Assembly: GCA_041649475.1 (NCBI GenBank) | Contig: JBAZNA010000001.1 | Span: 814,594-878,593 of the forward strand | From: Patescibacteria group bacterium | GTDB lineage: Bacteria > Patescibacteriota > Patescibacteriia > Magasanikbacterales > GWA2-37-8 | Direction: 5' to 3' | Length of the DNA stretch: 64,000 bases | Position numbers and translations under genes: made by a program | Part shown: positions 9,431 to 48,970 of the stretch, one piece after another | Layout of the letters: every line of letters starts with the position of its first letter | Position numbering within the stretch: the stretch's first letter is position 1 | The notes under the pieces: model-generated | The model's input: the letters and a program-made list of their open reading frames with translations, nothing else | The model's database searches: none | What the model was told of the DNA's origin: nothing

Positions 9431-12400
9431 TTACTTTGGCTTGCTATTATTTTTTTCCAAATCCTTTATCCATTCTTTAACCATTTCTTTTTGTTCCTTT
9501 TTGATGGTTTTTTCTACTCTTTCCAAGGCGCTCTTTATCAAGTTAGCCACAGCGCCCCTGTCTTTGCTTGATTGATCCACACTCGTTTGCAATTGCTTAA
9601 GTTTTTTCACATCAGAATACTGCAGGATGTCACCCAAATCTGTTTTGACATATTCATCAACCTGATCCAACCGTGTAGAAGTGAGTGGCGCTAACAAATC
9701 AGCCACTATCTTTATAGATTCATCGGATTCAACAATAGCTTTTCTGTCCTCATTTTTATCTACAGCTCCTTCCAAGCCAGCACTAATACTGGTAATTTTT
9801 GCGGATGACCTTGCGGCTGTTCTTCTTCTTTGAATATGTTCTTTTCCTCCAGCACTACCGGCATCTGTGAGCCCCGTGGTAATACTTCCATCTGCCTGTA
9901 ATGTATCCTGGAGCAAACCGGCGACAGAAAACACACCCTGCCCTGCGGCCTTATCAAGGGACAAACGCAGCTGTTCCAACAAGGCCTGCGATCGTTCTCC
10001 GTGTATAGCGCCAAACTGCTTCACAGCTGCTTCCAACCCGTCTGGGCTTGCCGCTACCTTTTCACCAATGAGAGATGAAAATATGGCCGCTTGTACCTTC
10101 CTTACAGAACCAGCATCACTCGGATCTACGGAAATATTCTTAAGTAATTCCGGATCTACTAATTTTGAAATATTATCCATGTTTCCCAAACCAATCGCAC
10201 CGTGCTGTTCCCAATTGCCAATCTGCATTTCTGCCAAGCTCTTTTGAATCTGCGAATGTTTAAGCTTAGCCGCCACGACTGCCCTCTGATCTCCGCGTGA
10301 CTCGGCTGCCGCCAACTCTTTAAGCGCTTCGTCTTGTTTGTTGTATAATCCTTCCGTCCTAATAATTGACCTAGGGAAGTCAGTACCCACTGATTGCATA
10401 TCAATTCTTTGTTTTGCTTGTTTGCTCAAAACATTTTCCAAATTATTTGCTTCAGAAAAACGATTATTGCTTCTCAAGACCGCATCCCTGGCGCGGGCCA
10501 CATTACGTTCCTTTATTTCATTCATATCCGTATTCAACTGTTCAATCTGTGCTCTTCTGTCCGTAATATCCGCTTGCACAACTTTCCCTTGATCACTTGT
10601 TAACACTTTTTTGATCTCCTCTAATTCCTTCAGTTCTCTTTCTGCGTTCAACTTATCTTCCATTTGCTTAGTCTCCGCTTTGGCTGCAGCCGCACGCAAC
10701 ATCCTCTCTCCACCTTCTCCGGCCATTAATTTTTGCTTTATCCGCGCCCTATCTTCCTCTTGTGTTGCCTTTAACATCTGCTCTATATTTTCAGCTTCAA
10801 TAGCAGATTTATCAGCATTATTTAATCGCTGATAATCAGAAGTTTGCCGAGCATCAAATTTCCCGGATGCCTCCAGTTCTTCCAAAACCTGCTTTTCTGA
10901 TTTTCCCGCACCTTTACCCGCGGCAACCGCGGCCGCTATAGCTCTATTATCTTCATCTTGTTCTTCATATTTTGTCTGTAATTTTCGCCTCTTAATATCC
11001 TGACCGGTTCTCTTCAGTTTTTCCAAGTCCGCTTCTTCTTGTAGCTTTCTTTGGCCGGTCGGGGTCTTGCTGGTGCTTATTCTATGCTCTTGTTGCTCTA
11101 TTGCATATTTTGCAGCTGTTTCTTCATCCTTTGCCAATTCATTCTTAAACCGCTGGGGTGCAAACATCAAACCAAGTCTGGCGCCATATCTTTTCCATCT
11201 ACTTTTTTCTGTAAACTCACCTTGTTCATTTTTTCCAAAGGCAGTATCTATCCTTCTCCCCGCCGCTACAATTCTCGGCTCAACATAACCCTTGTTCCAC
11301 GCTTGTGATACTCTGCTCTTTATACGAAGCCCTCTTGCTTGCCACGCCTCTCCACCCACAAGAGGAGCTTTCATCAAAGCAAACTTTCCGGCCTTTTTTC
11401 CGGCCTCCATACCCTTTCTACCCACATACCTCGCCGCGGTCAGACCACTGGCGATCTTAGCCGTCTTTTCAACCGCACTGCTAAGCATTGACCCGCCATA
11501 CACTCCCAATTCCTGGGCCATTTTGGCTCCGGCCATCAGCATACCAATGGCAATGGCGAAGTTGGCTAAAGCGACCCAGGTCATGCCTCCGCCCACTCCT
11601 GATTTTTGGCCAACGCCCGCGTCATCAACAGCCGCCCAGGTATCACCGGCCGGCAGAGGATTATTGGCAGAACTGGTAATATCAGATTGAATATCACCCG
11701 ACCCCAAAGTAACAAAAGCCAGCCAAATAAAAAAGGCAATGAGCGGACCAGAGACGACGTTGTTACCGAATTCTTTCCACCACCGATCGGCATAACCTTT
11801 TGTTTTTGGTAAAACATTTAAGACAAAAGCTAAAGGAGATAAAACAATCAACACCCAAAGCATAACCATCCTGGCTAACAGCATAATTGCAAAAACACCC
11901 ATGGTCACCATCATCATTGCCGAAAAAACTAATCCGCCCAAAGATGCCAAAAATACATTACCGGGCGTAATTTCATTCGGCTTGGCCTGACGAGCCAGAT
12001 TAAGAATATTATTAACATTAAACATGTTAATTAAATTCCCACCGGCAGTTGCGGCCACACCGTTGATAAAAGTGATCATTATCACCTGCGCGAAGTCAAT
12101 TATAATTCCGGCAATTTGCCGGCTGAAGTTCACCAGTACGGCCGCGAATATTAATTTGCTTAATAATTTTTTCCAGGAATAATCTTCAATCCCCAAAATT
12201 GTGGCAAAAGCAATAATAAGCAAAACTATGACAAAAAACATGTTGGTTATGTCGCGCACCATGATCCAGCCGATATTTACGGCCGGAGACCTGATATATC
12301 CGTTATAACCCCCAAGAGTGATGACAAACTTAAGTAAAAATATTGAAATTTGAATAAACCAACCGGCGATTGTTAACAGTATGGTACCAATCAGATTGGC

Positions 12401-12604: not shown

Positions 12605-13280
12605 TAATATATAGATAGTGTCCCCAGAAAGGAAAAATCCTGTTTAAAATGCCATCAAAAACACCAGCAATCGGCATATCCGCGTAAGGCGGTTTGGCAA
12701 AAAACTTGACTGAAGAGAAGCCATTTCGCCTTAACCAGTGTTTAAATTTAAATGGCGAATATTTTTTGTGCGTGCCATAAGGCCAGCGTTTTTTTATGCG
12801 CAGATACCATTCCTGCATAACACCGAATGAAAGCAGATTCGGCTGAACAATAATTAACAAACCGTCAGGTTTGAGCACCCGGCGCGCCTCGGATATTGCT
12901 TTTTCAATTTCATCAAAATATGTGAGCACGCCCCAGCTTAACACCACATCAAATGTCTGGTCGCTAAAAGGCAAAGCCCGCGCGTCCGCAACCTGGTAAG
13001 TATTCATATTAGTTGGTTCAATTGCCTTTGCCCGTTCAATTGCCCCGCTGGAAATGTCTATGCCACAACCGGTTGTCTGAAAATTTTGTTGTAAATATCT
13101 TAGCGCCGCTCCGTCGCCACAGCCCGCATCCAACACTTTTTTGCCCAAAAAATCAATGCCAAAATTCACCAGATCAGAAATTTTTTCTTCTGTTTTAAAC
13201 ACCCGCCGCGGGTAAAGAGAATACTGATTATTTTTTAACCAGATGGCATCCCACCGGTCAGAGATAGAATTTTTTGGCAT
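12591..13280 (-). CDS. class I SAM-dependent methyltransferase
   Basis: Motif I LDAGCGDGAA and motif post-I GIDIS, Rossmann MTase fold. Overlaps the downstream VirB6-like gene by 14 nt. Confidence 0.8.
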   Translation of the reverse strand: MPKNSISDRWDAIWLKNNQYSLYPRRVFKTEEKISDLVNFGIDFLGKKVLDAGCGDGAALRYLQQNFQTTGCGIDISSGAIERAKAIEPTNMNTYQVADARALPFSDQTFDVVLSWGVLTYFDEIEKAISEARRVLKPDGLLIIVQPNLLSFGVMQEWYLRIKKRWPYGTHKKYSPFKFKHWLRRNGFSSVKFFAKPPYADMPIAGVFDGILNRIFPFWGHYLYIIARK

Positions 13281-13285
13281 ATTTC

Positions 13286-13314
13286 TACTATATTTCTAAA
13301 CGGCGGGGTTGTCA
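13286..13314 (-). promoter_or_regulatory. sigma70-type promoter for methyltransferase / T4SS-like operon (TTGACA-17-TATAGT), near-leaderless
   Basis: Minus-strand reading is TTGACAaccccgccgtttagaaaTATAGTagaaatATG. The -10 ends 6 nt before the ATG. Confidence 0.5.
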
Positions 13315-13343
13315 ATGAGTTGGCTAAAGATTATAATTCATTC

Positions 13344-13372
13344 TTGACAGAACCTCGTCTTTTGGCTATATT
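13344..13372 (+). promoter_or_regulatory. sigma70-type promoter (TTGACA-17-TATATT) for GC-rich lipoprotein gene
   Basis: Consensus -35 at 13344-13349 and -10 at 13367-13372 with a 17-nt spacer. Leader hairpin CCCAAC-ctggtg-TTGGG at 13381-13397 and SD AAGGAGAGG follow. Confidence 0.6.
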
Positions 13373-13422
13373 ATCTGGTTCCCAACCTGGTGTTGGGTAC
13401 GAAAAAGGAAAAGGAGAGGCAC

Positions 13423-15375
13423 ATGACCAAGATCGGCTTCTGTTTCGTGGCGTTTCTCGCGTTCATCCTGTGCGCCTGTGGTGGTAACTCCGGAACCGGT
13501 GATGGCGGCACGGACAACCACGACAGCGCCGTCAGCGACGGCACCCTGCCCAACGACGCCAGGGATACGGCCCCTTCGGAGTGCACGAGCAACGCGCAGT
13601 GCGACGATGGCATTGACTGCACGGACGACACCTGTTCGTCCTCGGGCTGGTGCACCAACACGCTGGTGCCGGCGCGGTGTCCGACAGGTACGTGGTGTAA
13701 TCCCACCAAAGGTTGCGAGGCCGGAAAGGCCTGCGCCAAGGACGAGGATTGCGACAGCACCGATGCCTGCGTCGTGAACAACGGCTGTGATCCTGCCTCG
13801 CGCGTCTGCATGTGGTCAGTGCTTGACGGCGATGGCGATGGACAGCCCCCGCTTGTGTGCGGCGGAACCGACTGTGATGACAGCGACTCCGACGTCTACG
13901 CCGGAGCTCCCATGCGTTGCAACGGCAAAGATAACAACTGCGATGGGATCGTGGATACCGGAACCGCCACGGACGAATGGTGCAACGAGACCTACGGACC
14001 GGGTCACGCCTGCCAGTCAGGGCACTGCGTCTGTACGACCGGGACACAGTGCGGGTACACGTGTGCGGACTTGCTCACCGACAAGAACCACTGTGGCACA
14101 TGTTTCAACCCATGTCCGCTCAATGAAGTGTGTGTACAGGGTCAGTGTGAGTGCCCGAGCAGTGGCCAGACATTCTGTGCTGTTGATGGCTGTGTTGACC
14201 TCACGAGCGACAAATACAACTGTGGCGAGTGTGAACACGGCTGCTGGGCAGACCAGACATGCGTAGCAAGTCAGTGCGCGTGTTCAGGCAACCTGACGCA
14301 ATGCGGTTCGTGTGTGGACACACAAACCGACAACGACAACTGCGGTTCGTGCGGTCACGCCTGCAGCTCGCCTGCCAGCTGTGTGTCGGGTCAGTGCCAG
14401 TGTCCGACCAGTGGCCAGAGCTATTGCGATGGCGCCGGCTGTGTGGATCTTCAGACCGACCACGACAACTGCGGCACATGCGGGCACGCGTGCCGTGCAA
14501 GCGATACATGCTGGAGCGGCAGCTGCCCGGCTTACTGGAAAAACGTCGTGAGTAACACGGCGCTGAAGCTCAACGCAGTATGGGGAGCCGCACCCAATGA
14601 TGTCTGGACTGTTGGAAACTACACCACTGGCTCCCTGGGAGGCGCCATCCACTGGAACGGTAGCTCGTGGGCGCCTATGGGTGGCGCGACATCGAAACTC
14701 TACGGAATCTGGGGAACCACGCTTAATTTCTGGGTCGTTGGAGAAACCAGCGGGTACCTCGAGGTCTGGAATGACGTCTCCGGCACTTGGGAGGGTATAC
14801 CCAACGGGTGCACGACAGCTTCCCTCTATGGTATCTGGGGAACTGCGATTGATGATACCTGGTTCGTTGGAGCCGCCGGAACGACTGTCTATTTCAACGG
14901 CAGTACGTTCTCATGCGTCCCCAGCGGTTCAACGAATGTCCTCCATGGAGTAGGAGGCACCGCCAACAATGACGTCTGGACAGTAGGAGACGGCGGTACC
15001 ATCCTCCATTGGAATGGAAGCACGTGGTCCAGCGTGACCTCCAATACGACGAACGCCCTCTATGGAGTGTGGGGCAACACCACCAGTGATGTCTGGGTGG
15101 TGGGCGACTACGGTACCACTCTTCACTGGAATGGAAGTGTGTGGTCAGCCGTCGTCAGCTACACAGGATCAAAACTCAACGGCGTGTGGGGCAGTAGTGC
15201 CAACGATGTCTGGGCTGTGGGAGATGTCGGGGTCATCCTCCACTGGAACGGGAGTAATTGGTCCACTGTTGCCACAGGGACAACGGCACATTTCTCTGCC
15301 GTGTGGGGCAACAGCGCTACTGACATCTGGGTTGTGGGAGAAGCGGGAACCACTCTCCACTACTACACGTACTGA
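13423..15375 (+). CDS. secreted Cys-rich lipoprotein with putative metal-binding Cys/Asp motif, CGxCGHxC repeats and eight C-terminal ~40-aa propeller-like repeats; very GC-rich
   Basis: Start ATG at 13423 after SD AAGGAGAGG. Signal peptide plus Cys lipobox region (FLAFILCACGG). DGDGDGQPPLVCGGTDCDDSDSDVYAGAPMRCNGKDNNCDG matches the MopE-type putative metal-binding motif. The C-terminal repeats follow WGxxxxDVWxVGxxGTxLHWNGSxWS, eight copies. GC3 is far above the genome background. Confidence 0.75.
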   Translation: MTKIGFCFVAFLAFILCACGGNSGTGDGGTDNHDSAVSDGTLPNDARDTAPSECTSNAQCDDGIDCTDDTCSSSGWCTNTLVPARCPTGTWCNPTKGCEAGKACAKDEDCDSTDACVVNNGCDPASRVCMWSVLDGDGDGQPPLVCGGTDCDDSDSDVYAGAPMRCNGKDNNCDGIVDTGTATDEWCNETYGPGHACQSGHCVCTTGTQCGYTCADLLTDKNHCGTCFNPCPLNEVCVQGQCECPSSGQTFCAVDGCVDLTSDKYNCGECEHGCWADQTCVASQCACSGNLTQCGSCVDTQTDNDNCGSCGHACSSPASCVSGQCQCPTSGQSYCDGAGCVDLQTDHDNCGTCGHACRASDTCWSGSCPAYWKNVVSNTALKLNAVWGAAPNDVWTVGNYTTGSLGGAIHWNGSSWAPMGGATSKLYGIWGTTLNFWVVGETSGYLEVWNDVSGTWEGIPNGCTTASLYGIWGTAIDDTWFVGAAGTTVYFNGSTFSCVPSGSTNVLHGVGGTANNDVWTVGDGGTILHWNGSTWSSVTSNTTNALYGVWGNTTSDVWVVGDYGTTLHWNGSVWSAVVSYTGSKLNGVWGSSANDVWAVGDVGVILHWNGSNWSTVATGTTAHFSAVWGNSATDIWVVGEAGTTLHYYTY

Positions 15376-15427
15376 CACTAGCACTGCTTCGCTCCTTCCT
15401 ACCTTTTCGCTCCTTTTCACCCCTTCG

Positions 15428-15476
15428 GCCCGGCCCTATCTGACTTCAAGGTCAGTGGGGTACGGGCTTTTTTATT
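15428..15476 (+). terminator. rho-independent terminator
   Basis: Long near-perfect hairpin gcccggccctatctgac-ttcaag-gtcagtggggtacgggc followed by TTTTTT. Confidence 0.7.
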
Positions 15477-15508
15477 TGCTAAGCCGAGCTAAAAGTGTTA
15501 ATCTACCC

Positions 15509-15537
15509 TTGACAAGAGCTCATTTTTGTGCTATACT
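15509..15537 (+). promoter_or_regulatory. sigma70-type promoter (TTGACA-17-TATACT) for second GC-rich lipoprotein gene, with ~165-nt structured leader
   Basis: Consensus -35 at 15509-15514 and -10 at 15532-15537. The leader contains hairpin GCTAAGTT...AACTTAGC (15576-15605) and the CCCAACC...GGTTGGG hairpin (15672-15691) before SD GGAAAAGGAGA. Confidence 0.55.
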
Positions 15538-15710
15538 AATCTGTTAGTTTTTAAATAGGTTGTTCTTTACAAAGTGCTAAGTTGAGCCGAAAGGCAGAAC
15601 TTAGCCAAATGAGATGGTAAGCCCAAGTTGGGGTGATAGTTGGTTCTAAAATCTTTAGACACAGCTACAACCCCAACCTTGGGTGGTTGGGAACAGGAAA
15701 AGGAGAAACC

Positions 15711-16166
15711 ATGCGCTACAACATCAAGAAGATCCTCGCGATCATGGGCGGCTTCGCCCTTGTTCTCATCGCTGTTGCGGCCCTCACCGGCTGTGGTGGC
15801 GACGATCCCCAGTGCGGAACCGACGGTCAGCCCCCGTGCGACGTTCAGGCCGACGGCGGCACCGACGGCACGCCGACCCAGCAGGACGCTGGCGACGGCG
15901 GTGTCATCAAGACCGACGGCGGCGACGCGGGCGGAGATCCGTGCGCGGCGTTCAATCCTTACCTGAACGGATGGACCTGCAAAACCGCTCCGAATGACCC
16001 ACTGTCGTTCTCCTGCAATTTCCTGCCTACCGCCGATGGCAGTGCATGCCAGATTGGCTGCTATGGCCACTTCTCGTGCATTGCTCCTCCGGAGATGTTG
16101 ACGTCGCAGGAGTTTACCTGCGATATGATCGGCGCTCCCGGAAACATCCGCATCTGTGTCCACTAG
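15711..16166 (+). CDS. small secreted Cys/Gly/Asp-rich lipoprotein; very GC-rich
   Basis: ATG at 15711 after SD AAGGAGAAACC. Signal peptide with classic lipobox LTGC. Eleven Cys in a 151-aa mature part. GC3 very high. Confidence 0.7.
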   Translation: MRYNIKKILAIMGGFALVLIAVAALTGCGGDDPQCGTDGQPPCDVQADGGTDGTPTQQDAGDGGVIKTDGGDAGGDPCAAFNPYLNGWTCKTAPNDPLSFSCNFLPTADGSACQIGCYGHFSCIAPPEMLTSQEFTCDMIGAPGNIRICVH

Positions 16167-16246
16167 TTCCACCCCACCATCTCGCTCGCGACGATTCACA
16201 AATCGTCGCGCGCTTCCCTAAGTAGAAAATAGCTTTTCTGTTGAGG

Positions 16247-16285
16247 AAAAACAAAAATCCCGATTCAAATCGGGATTTTTGTTTT
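16247..16285. terminator. bidirectional rho-independent terminator
   Basis: AATCCCGAT-tcaa-ATCGGGATT perfect 9-bp stem flanked by A-run upstream and T-run downstream. Serves the converging lipoprotein gene (+) and giant gene (-). Confidence 0.75.
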
Positions 16286-16294
16286 AAATATTGT

Positions 16295-19200
16295 TTACTG
16301 TGGCGCGACAATGATACTACCGAAAAATGAAGTTGAAGCAGTAGTCAAATAATTGTCGCACTCATTGACATAAGGGGATGTCCACCCCTTATCATAACAC
16401 CCACCCAGCCCATTGTGATCACAACTCCCATTACACCACCCCCAATTATCCTTCACCTGCACGGACGGTTTGAAGACGCAACAGCCACCCGGGAAACGCG
16501 CGTCCGGACAAGTGTCTTGCCAGCCGGTGCCGTCTTTTAGACATTGGTAAACGTGGTCAAAACGGAAGTATGAGTTGTCACAAGATTTATCCAATATCTG
16601 ACCGAAATTGACAGACAAACTCTCCGACAGACACTGATCCAAATATTTACAATCAGCGGATTTAACACAAGTTTTGCCGGTGTCCACGTTAACTGTGGTG
16701 CGACTGTCTGTGGAAAGGGCAGAAATATATTCCGTAGCTTGGACTTTACAAGTGCCGTTTGTGCATGTACCGGCAACTACGCCGCGATGGTTGCGATAAT
16801 AGCCATTAAGGTTGGTCAAATCACCGTCACCCCAACTGACAATAACATTTCGCAAAGGCATTTGATTGGCGTCGGCAAAGGCGTAAAATTTAATGTTGGC
16901 CGGGAAGACGTATGACGGAGAAACTACATTACCGGTTGATTGATCGTTGACGGTGATACCCGGATTACCTTCACCGCATCTGCCGGCTAAACATGCTTGC
17001 GTGTTAAGAGAGCGGACTTCGGGCGGTCTCGGTGTTAATCCCGAACATGCTTGCACAGAACTTCCGCTTAAGGTAACGTTCGGACAAATGTTTTTATCTC
17101 CTTTTTCCGTATAATTATTGTTGACGTAATAGGTTGAATTGGGAACATAGGCCTTTGAGTTAAAACTATATTCCAAATCCGCATAAACGCTCGCAAAAAT
17201 CTTGGCCGCGGCCTTTTGGCCTTGATCTAAAACAAAGTTGCTGGCCGGACTCTTTTTAACTCCGCCTGAATCGGTGGTCATGGTACAACCACTGCCATTA
17301 TCATACTGACAACTGAAAGGAGCGCCGGAAACTTGTTTGGGGGCTGTTAAATTGTATTTACACGTACAATCATAAGTCGTGCCGTCGGATTTTACCGGAC
17401 AGGGATTGCACTCACTCTCCGCCTTTGGCATGGCGCCGACAGGACTAAGCACAACAGGACTAACCGGTTGGGTATTCTGACCAATACTGCCAAATGGACT
17501 ACGATTGGTTAAATAATCATAACCCACCCAATCAGCAATCTCCGGTCCGCCAAAATCTCTTATTGAATACTTTGATTTTTGCCATAAACGATCTGTCCAA
17601 GCCACAGCGCGTCCGCCACTGGGATTAATACCACTGTCAACGGACACATCCAAAATCTTTTCGCACCACTGCCTTACTCTAAATTTCACGTCATAGTTAA
17701 TATGTCCTGTATTAGCAGAATCATCACAATAAGCTAAATAATAACCCAAAAACTTACCGGTATTTTCATCAAACTTTAACCGAACAGCATGCCAATTTCC
17801 AAAATTTTTACTAGATAATGTACAGATATCATCCATACTGATGCTTCTATTCCAAATGCCTTCCACGCCCAAGCTTCTGTTGTTAGAGGTTTTTAAAGTG
17901 TCGGCTTGCAGAATATTACCGGATAATGTGGCACAAGTTAAAGTATCCCCGCTATAACCATAACAAACCGAACCATCATCCTTAAGATAAGTGCTATTTA
18001 CCGGGTCGGCCTCATTCTTGGAAGCGCTACTATACATTAATATAAATTCATTTGCTTTACCTAAATATTTGCCAACTACAGCATGCCCAAAAGGACTAAC
18101 ATTACCGCCTCTGGTATTAAGAGCAAACACTGCTTGAGGGGTTCCAACAGGCGCGGTATTATCATTAGGCCAAACTTCAAAAACAGTACCTACTCTAGGA
18201 TCCTCCGTATCATCACCGGTCACCGTGAATTGAATTTTTTCTATGTCAGCCAAACGTAAATTCTTCTCTCCATTATTTGAGTCAGCAGGCACAAAAGCTC
18301 TTATATATGCATTGTCGGATTGTTCCATCCACCATCCGGTCTCGAGAATATTCGTATCACCCAGACCATTTGCGGTGTGCATTTGTAAATTTTCAGTACT
18401 CCCCTCTATGGCGGGATTTGGCTTGGCCGTCCACTCAAAATAATAAGGAGTAGCACCTACATATCCCATCACTTTATTTCCACTCAAACAATAATACCTG
18501 CCTCCATTTGAAGGATTAACATATCCGGCTTCCCTGTCCTGGCCATTGACATCCGGAGCGCCGATTAGAGTGTCAACCGGATACCAAGTCAAACAAGTGT
18601 TGGTCTTGCCGTCCGCGTTTAATTGTCTGGAAATATCCGGCTCCAAACAATAACCGTGCCAGCCCACAAAACTGGTTTGCTTGGTGGCTTTGTTGCAAGT
18701 GCCGCCGTCCGGACAATCAGCATCGGTTTCACAAACCTTGCCGTCACGGGTGCCATTGGAACAAATTCCGCCCACCACTCCCTTAATCATCGTATTGTTC
18801 ACGCCGGCAATGCCAACCAAATTATTCGGATTGCTTAAATTCCAATACTTGGAAATTGAATCCCCATAACTGACTTTTGTATAATCACATTCGCAGGCAC
18901 CCGCCGCACTCGCATCAGTGGTCACACCTGTCCCACTTTCATTGCACAAATTCGCGCCGGCATAATTTTGCGCTGATTTCAAACTTTGCGTGTTCGGATA
19001 CGGCGCGCTTTCTTCCGGATAATTGCGGCAAGTTTGTTTGGGCGCGTTAGCGTCAAAGTCGGCGGCCGTGCCGTTTGGGTTTAAAACGCAGACCGAATTA
19101 TTGCTGGCGGTTTTTTCACACAAACCAATGCCGCCGCGGCCGCACTTATCCGTACCTGCTTTGCAAAGATAAGATTCAGTTTTGGTTGAATCCTGGCAAT

Positions 19201-41266: not shown

Positions 41267-41295
41267 ATTATACCGCAACCCTGCAAATTTGTCAA
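41267..41295 (-). promoter_or_regulatory. sigma70-type promoter for rpsA (TTGACA-17-TATAAT)
   Basis: Minus-strand reading is TTGACAaatttgcagggttgcggTATAATcc. Perfect consensus. Confidence 0.6.
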
Positions 41296-48908: not shown

Positions 48909-48970
48909 AATTTAAAATTAAATGAATAAAGACGGCCGCTTAGGCCGCCTTTAATATAGCACAGCTAAAT

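Follow-up and report, generated by a model that had tools for sequence, protein, structure and literature searches.

A short hairpin and a strong Shine-Dalgarno sequence shared by two horizontally acquired lipoprotein genes on a Patescibacteria chromosome

Why do two genes encoding unrelated lipoproteins carry the same short hairpin and the same strong Shine-Dalgarno (SD) sequence directly upstream of their start codons? The question is raised by a 64,000-nucleotide (nt) piece of a Patescibacteria chromosome (GenBank assembly GCA_041649475.1, contig JBAZNA010000001.1, positions 814,594 to 878,593; hereafter the window), in which a GC-rich probable lipoprotein of 650 amino acids (aa) is encoded at 13423–15375 (+; gene 1) and a GC-rich lipoprotein of 151 aa at 15711–16166 (+; gene 2). 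An earlier examination of the letters alone (here called the sequence-only reading) had interpreted the arrangement as a conserved structured leader and a common post-transcriptional control element, whether a protein- or metabolite-binding RNA or a thermosensor, or else as a hallmark of the donor lineage. The analysis presented here favors, with a probability of roughly 0.55, a single expression module in two copies over an independently conserved regulatory RNA. In this module, a host-type sigma-70 promoter would be followed by a short GC-rich hairpin in the 5′ untranslated region (5′-UTR) and by a strong extended SD sequence.

The shared hairpin and Shine-Dalgarno sequence

The elements named in the sequence-only reading (both short hairpins, both SD sequences, a palindrome and an 8-base pair (bp) hairpin) were all located, with shifts of at most 1 nt. 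In gene 1, the hairpin core CCCAAC-CTGGT-GTTGGG (13381–13397, +) has a 6-bp stem and a 5-nt loop and is extended by G-C and U-A pairs to 13378–13400 (pair probability 0.99). It is followed by the SD sequence GGAAAAGGAGA at 13407–13417 (+), the extended form of which (GGAAAAGGAGAGG, 13407–13419) is positioned 3–5 nt ahead of the ATG at 13423. In gene 2, the copy of this hairpin, CCCAACC-TTGGGT-GGTTGGG (15672–15691, +), precedes GGAAAAGGAGA at 15696–15706 (+), 4 nt ahead of the ATG at 15711, and a further palindrome, CCCAAGTTGGG, can be read in the leader at 15622–15632 (+). The 11-nt SD block is identical in the two genes and lies outside the hairpin in both, 9 nt downstream in gene 1 and 4 nt downstream in gene 2.

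The simplest objection is that two short GC-rich palindromes happen to resemble each other beside ordinary ribosome-binding sites. The stability of the hairpins gives this idea some room, as neither was more stable than shuffled sequences: 50-nt contexts gave −9.8 kcal/mol (z = +0.19) for gene 1 and −13.5 kcal/mol (z = −0.71) for gene 2, with energies of −6.9 kcal/mol for the isolated gene 1 hairpin and −11.8 kcal/mol for the short hairpin of gene 2, and a loose form of the hairpin plus SD pattern also arises by chance in unrelated genomes. The statistics of the window argue the other way. Specifically, CCCAAC-N4-12-GTTGGG had two matches in 64 kb where 0.06 would be expected by chance, with none of 100 shuffles reaching two, and the hairpin plus SD segments gave a local alignment score of 34 against 12.1 ± 2.3 for shuffles, a score reached by none of 2000 shuffles. 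The promoters of the two genes are similar too (see below). The sharing of hairpin and SD sequence between genes 1 and 2 is real and beyond chance, and coincidence, which retains only a minimal probability, is effectively refuted.

A search for further CCCAACC-N6-GGTTGGG instances, proposed along with the control element, returned no related one in species genomes, in viral contigs, or in the window extended by 10 kb beyond one side. In 185,579 species genomes, a collection that does not include the window's own genome, the hairpin plus SD pattern gave 16 scattered and unrelated matches, approximately the number expected by chance, and its matches in viral contigs comprised a single Neisseria prophage sequence in 14 copies plus two others, all unrelated. 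No further CCCAACC hairpin motif was present in the rest of the window or in the adjoining 10 kb. Neither a comparison of the gene 2 leader with phage and plasmid collections nor a search of viral contigs with 20-mers and 22-mers from its first hairpin (P1, described below) gave a match. A protein-guided metagenome scan recovered one unrelated lipoprotein that was alike in its signal peptide alone, and the corresponding viral scan recovered nothing.

The loose-pattern matches in Neisseria prophage-like contigs (L012, L015, L023–L033 and L035–L037) represent one conserved 44-nt sequence, CCCAACGTTG.GCGAAATGTTGGG...GGAAAAGGAG, which is unrelated to the window.

Structure and conservation of the gene 2 leader

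The promoter of gene 2 (TTGACA-17-TATACT with an extended −10 TG, giving TGcTATACT; 15509–15537, +) predicts a transcription start at ~15544, and the leader is long (~165 nt), as the sequence-only reading had described it, and strongly structured; the full leader of 167 nt folded at −63.2 kcal/mol (z = −4.8 against shuffles). About 30 unpaired AU-rich nt are followed by the 8-bp hairpin P1 (15576–15605, +; −15.9 kcal/mol, fold z = −4.9), in which the arms GCTAAGTT and AACTTAGC flank an inner GCC-GAAA-GGC tip with a GAAA tetraloop, the whole reading GCUAAGUU-GA-GCC-GAAA-GGC-AG-AACUUAGC. Downstream, a 64-nt hairpin termed P2 (15621–15684, +; −35.5 kcal/mol, pair probability 0.95 in the full leader) comprises a 14-bp outer helix, GCCCAAGUUGGGGU/ACCCCAACCUUGGGU, and two helices of 6 bp each, about 26 bp in total. 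The 3′ arm of P2, ACCCCAACCUUGGGU, contains CCCAACC, so that P2 and the short hairpin cannot form at the same time. Because CCCAACC is engaged in this arm, the short hairpin of gene 2, ~128 nt from the predicted transcription start, had a probability of 0.000 in the full leader, compared with 0.97–1.0 in an RNA starting inside the P2 loop. Folding of both leaders, suggested as a check on the control element, thus predicted the short hairpin for gene 1 (0.99) and not for gene 2, where it is outcompeted by P2.

The comparative material for gene 2 consists of the window strain and one 1619-bp contig (L019) carrying P0002, the single homologue (48% identity) of the gene 2 protein in a database of 5.8 billion proteins. 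The homologous DNA begins ~30 nt before the −35 hexamer and continues as far as a perfect 18-bp bidirectional terminator (16248–16285), common to gene 2 and a convergent gene for a 2567-aa protein, which forms the right end of the segment; the gene neighborhood is different. Both promoter hexamers are kept, with differences at six of the 17 spacer positions. The leader from 15544 to 15618 differs from L019 886–959 at ~3 positions over 75 nt, and a 48-nt block overlapping P1 (15556–15603) shows no difference at all, compared with 13 of 33 four-fold synonymous sites (39%) between the two coding sequences, which indicates that the P1-bearing 5′ leader is under strong purifying selection. In the place of P2, L019 carries a nearly perfect hairpin of ~30 bp (973–1038) with an unrelated sequence, and its folds gave z = −6.5 and −7.6 (the latter for 960–1076). 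The SD sequence of L019 is different but strong (AGGAGG, −10.9 kcal/mol). The CCCAACC hairpin is not present in L019, the sole orthologue of gene 2. The features conserved between the two leaders are hence the promoter, P1, a long hairpin and a strong SD sequence, and not the CCCAACC hairpin, so that the proposal of a conserved structured leader holds for its P1 part and fails for the very hairpin on which it was built. No covariation was seen in the stem of that hairpin, as the stems of the two window copies are identical and the orthologue has no such hairpin.

Short GGT(G) repeats occur on both sides of P2 and of the L019 hairpin. The hairpins at this site could be independently inserted palindromic elements or a fast-evolving processing site. 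A possible model for both is provided by the Correia repeat-enclosed elements of Neisseria, long inverted repeats that form 5′-UTR hairpins at which RNase III cutting or protection alters the expression of the adjacent gene (PMC2649163). Unlike P2, which has no second copy in 74 kb (the window and the adjoining 10 kb), Correia elements are multicopy and mobile, with defined ends and target duplications.

Several specific kinds of regulatory leader were considered. A thermosensor was rejected because the SD sequence is not paired: it lies outside the hairpin in both genes and was unpaired in local folds of both leaders, the gene 2 site having an unpaired probability of 0.65–0.76 and being free in both conformers. 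The predicted accessibility of SD sequence and AUG was flat from 10 to 55 °C for both genes. The leaders share with RNA thermometers such as ROSE and fourU a 5′-UTR hairpin near the ribosome-binding site and differ from them in having neither the SD sequence nor the AUG inside the hairpin and in this constancy with temperature. An attenuator was rejected since no U-run follows the hairpins; the sequences 3′ of the two short hairpins are TACGAAAAAGG and AACAGGAAAAGG, and a terminator scan reported none there. A leader peptide was rejected because no small open reading frame (ORF) is conserved between the window and L019. The metabolite-binding RNA suggested by the sequence-only reading found no counterpart among the riboswitch and leader families of Rfam: at the gathering score the whole window returned tRNAs only, and at E ≤ 10 the region 13250–16350 returned nothing in either leader, with chance matches on the terminator at 16248–16285.

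A broader possibility is that the gene 2 leader, with its P1 block and its alternative pairing of P2 and the short hairpin, is an undescribed cis-regulatory RNA. A ligand or protein bound at P1 or at the 5′ arm of P2 would decide between the conformers, the conformer would control processing, stability or translation, and gene 1 would hold the output half only. The absence of any difference in the 48-nt block, the z-scores of both leaders, the mutual exclusion of P2 and the short hairpin, and the presence of a long hairpin at the same position in both orthologues despite unrelated sequences are all consistent with such an element. Set against this are the comparison of two sequences only, with no covariation, an SD sequence that is free in either conformer, the lack of a terminator in the leader, the lack of an Rfam match or of another copy in any collection searched, and the energies of the two conformers (−35.5 for P2 and −11.8 kcal/mol for the short hairpin), which leave no realistic equilibrium switch. 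On balance this explanation is considered unlikely. A narrower version, in which the leader is a structured regulatory RNA specific to Patescibacteria and dedicated to acquired surface lipoproteins, the CCCAACC hairpin and SD sequence being its output module reused for gene 1, appears distinctly unlikely; if it were true, a P1/P2 RNA would control the processing or translation of surface lipoproteins in a lineage otherwise free of SD sequences. As for the short hairpin itself, the lack of further instances, of covariation and of any preference for it in the gene 2 fold largely refutes the view of it as a post-transcriptional control element common to both genes.

Promoters, translation signals and the origin of the shared region

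The resemblance between genes 1 and 2 begins upstream of the hairpin. Both genes have a near-consensus sigma-70 promoter and a terminator to themselves. The gene 1 promoter (TTGACA-17-TATATT; 13344–13372, +) matches 11 of 12 consensus positions. Its −10 hexamer ends at 13372, 9 nt before the hairpin core, so that the mRNA is predicted to start at ~13378–13379, 0–3 nt from the hairpin, making the hairpin at 13378–13400 5′-terminal. The alignment of the two promoters begins at CTTGACA, continues across the spacer and GCTATA, and ends at ATCTG; its score of 28 was reached by one of 2000 shuffles, compared with scores of 10–21 for six other strong host promoters aligned with that of gene 1 or gene 2. 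The extended −10 motif TGTGCTATAYT is present also at two host promoters, and several host promoters are directly followed by a hairpin; this suggests that the promoter plus hairpin style is native to the host.

Two of these host sites have features of their own. At 48925–48963 (−), the promoter TGTGCTATATT leads directly into the GC hairpin CGGCC-TAAGC-GGCCG, after which an AU-rich leader lacking an SD sequence precedes a gene for a 119-aa membrane protein, and hairpins also lie directly past the predicted start at promoters with −10 hexamers ending at 41267, 29250 and 34173. At 353–483 (−), corresponding to 11460–11590 of another contig (L039), a promoter sharing the extended −10 of gene 2 (TGTGCTATACT, 465–475) is followed by AAGGAGGGG and then by a terminator-like hairpin, AACCCCGA..TCGGGGTT, with a T-run, ahead of a 151-aa gene that extends past the start of the window. 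An attenuator and a small RNA are both possible interpretations of this unit.

Because the promoters resemble each other in addition to the hairpin and SD sequence, the gene 1 control region reads as a shortened version of that of gene 2, lacking ~125 nt (approximately +6 to +127, that is, P1 and the 5′ half of P2). The simplest history would be that the module of gene 2 was copied with an internal deletion and set before a second imported gene in this lineage. Copying from gene 2 is the simpler direction since L019 has P1 but no gene 1, and since the gene 1 copy bears the CCCAACC of the window type.

The palindromes might instead act in DNA, either as CCCAA/TTGGG operators co-repressing both genes or as recombinase sites that reshuffle surface-protein genes. 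In small-genome bacteria, the members of surface lipoprotein gene families often have 5′ regions in common that are used in phase variation, and the window itself offers some encouragement: there are three CCCAA-N(0-10)-TTGGG palindromes in its 64 kb, every one inside the two leaders, and the gene 1 palindrome lies at approximately +3 to +19, a classic repressor position. However, the half-sites are spaced by 7, 1 and 2 nt, unlike those of one dimeric binder, and the gene 2 sites lie ~80 and ~130 nt past the transcription start. No integrase, regulator or recombinase is encoded among the genes neighboring the GC-rich island formed by the two lipoprotein genes, and the locus is 100% identical across three assemblies, with no inverted or deleted variant among them. 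A role in DNA is therefore regarded as quite improbable. The halves CCCAAC and GTTGGG also recall, respectively, the RYYYAAC inverse core and the GTTRRRY core of integron attC sites, and P2 has an attC-like length. An attC site was rejected on the grounds of hairpin length (17–20 nt for the short hairpins as against 57–141 nt), of the ends of P2 (AAG/CTT, not AAC/GTT) and of the lack of an integrase among the neighbors; L boxes and a cassette array are likewise missing, and genes 1 and 2 have their own promoters.

The SD sequences set the two genes apart from the rest of the chromosome. In a set of 41 host ORFs, each 150 aa or longer, two had an upstream duplex with the canonical anti-SD sequence of −6 kcal/mol or stronger, and the median was −0.9 kcal/mol, compared with −8.7 kcal/mol for genes 1 and 2; the host starts were taken from the longest ORFs and single values may be off, while the contrast is large. 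The upstream regions of GroEL (28834), NusA (34107) and RF1 (27190) are plainly AU-rich, and several host genes appear to be leaderless, with a −10 box 6–8 nt ahead of the ATG; a methyltransferase gene (13280) is another example lacking an SD sequence. The host chromosome thus seems to initiate translation almost without SD sites.

This contrast bears on the second suggestion of the sequence-only reading, that the arrangement is a hallmark of the donor lineage, or, put more strongly, that hairpin and SD sequence are a leftover from the donor with no function in the host. The strong SD sequence is indeed alien to the host, the coding regions are foreign in composition, and the relatives of gene 1 are of Deltaproteobacteria, Myxococcales and Longimicrobiaceae types. 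Yet the two proteins are unrelated while their leaders and promoters are alike, the promoters match those of the host, nothing similar was found upstream of two gene 1 homologues of similar architecture in Deltaproteobacteria-type genomes, and the orthologue of gene 2 has another hairpin and another SD sequence. The hallmark of a donor lineage accordingly draws weak support, from the SD sequence, and little credence is given to a functionless remnant.

For gene 1, we infer that a hairpin at the 5′ end of the mRNA, adjoining a strong ribosome-binding site, would shield the transcript from 5′-end-dependent decay and allow high constitutive expression. In gene 2, CCCAACC would normally be locked in P2, and the short hairpin would form only after P2 had been unfolded or cleaved, with RNase III as one candidate; speculatively, such cleavage would recreate a 5′ end of the gene 1 type.

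By analogy, the best-supported reading of the gene 1 leader would place it among mRNA-stabilizing leaders of the aprE, ompA and STAB-SD type. In Bacillus subtilis aprE, a 5′ stem-loop together with ribosome binding is described as stabilizing the mRNA (Hambraeus et al. 2002, as cited in PMC3997798). Gene 1 resembles it in having a short stem-loop at the predicted 5′ end, a strong SD sequence within about 10–25 nt, an exported product, an SD sequence that is not occluded and no terminator; it differs in that there is no sequence similarity, the 5′ end of gene 1 is a predicted one and host genes are mostly without SD sequences. The gene 2 leader is more reminiscent of the 5′-UTR stabilizer of Escherichia coli ompA (Arnold, Yu and Belasco 1998; Bouvet and Belasco 1992, both as cited in PMC3997798), with a long 5′-UTR, two hairpins with single-stranded spacers, the last of which bears the SD sequence, and an envelope protein gene downstream, the ompA protein being abundant. 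The first hairpin of ompA is 5′-terminal, whereas P1 is preceded by the ~30 unpaired nt, and P2 is much longer than the second ompA hairpin (hp2). In cryIIIA, a purine-rich SD-like tract (STAB-SD) is reported to stabilize the mRNA through 30S binding (Agaisse and Lereclus 1996, as cited in PMC3997798), and the katG polypurine stabilizer is given as a purine-rich tract in the 5′-UTR (PMC2358910). Genes 1 and 2 likewise have a purine-rich SD-like tract in the 5′-UTR, which is the actual ribosome-binding site by the start codon rather than a separate upstream element.

A number of points weigh against the duplicated module. In a 93-nt gene 1 mRNA that includes 50 nt of coding sequence, the SD sequence and AUG are largely paired with codons 10–12 (unpaired probability ~0.2), a poor fit to simple high expression, and the ordinary stability of both short hairpins relative to shuffles of the same composition is no help to it. 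The transcription starts are predicted ones, and a second promoter-like site upstream of gene 1 (13309–13337) would place its hairpin internally. The SD duplex of −8.7 kcal/mol was calculated with the canonical anti-SD sequence, the 3′ end of the host's own 16S rRNA lying outside the window. The comparison has a depth of two sequences, so that missing covariation is weak evidence. Selection for a more specific property could also account for the identical 11-nt SD block and for stems that are fully complementary in each copy, and a duplication leaves the strong conservation of P1 unexplained.

The two genes in their setting

Three kinds of gene surround genes 1 and 2. The first comprises housekeeping genes (KsgA, Sua5, RF1, GroEL, YidC, NusA, FtsH and a PilB-type ATPase), the second encodes TrbL/VirB6, PrgI, TraC-like and VirB4-like proteins in a type IV secretion-like cluster, and the third is the gene for the 2567-aa protein. 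Within a long run of minus-strand genes, genes 1 and 2 alone are on the plus strand, and their GC content at third codon positions (0.69 and 0.76, respectively) is foreign compared with that of their neighbors (0.42–0.46). The two genes are horizontally acquired by this Patescibacteria genome. A search for repeats flanking the GC-rich island gave matches at chance level only. In L019, the part of the contig at 1–435 (−) is homologous to window positions 16433–16843, which encode a C-terminal part of the 2567-aa protein; this fragment flanks the lipoprotein cassette on the opposite side, with an unrelated 100-aa ORF after it, indicating that the cassette has moved relative to its neighbors.

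The gene 1 protein has Cys-rich repeats of the Stig1/MopE type followed by a C-terminal propeller of 39-aa repeats. The Cys-rich part is encoded by four repeats of 120–129 nt (14062–14493), and the stretch 14569–15361 contains five or more propeller-type units of 117 nt each (39 aa, WG..DVW.VG..G.ILHWNGS.W). All of its homologues are distant, with at most 50% identity over part of the length. The gene ends in an intrinsic terminator at 15427–15475 (+), a GC-rich hairpin with a T-run (−28.4 kcal/mol, z = −3.5). The gene 2 protein has the lipobox LTGC. A 210-aa antisense ORF at 15567–16199 (−) spans gene 2 and its leader and is reported in place of gene 2 by ENA, Logan and JGI gene calls; a protein search with it matched solely itself. 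This ORF has the appearance of an annotation artefact arising from the GC-rich insert, and it masks the gene 2 family in protein databases.

Expressing an abundant envelope protein from a copied promoter and leader, equipped with a 5′ hairpin and a strong ribosome-binding site, would be a familiar solution and, on its own, of little importance. With their very strong SD sequences, genes 1 and 2 offer a natural test case for the expression of imported genes in SD-poor hosts. To our knowledge, almost no cis-acting RNA elements have been recognized in the Patescibacteria phylum, and the conserved 75 nt at the start of the gene 2 leader provide a small and concrete candidate for one.

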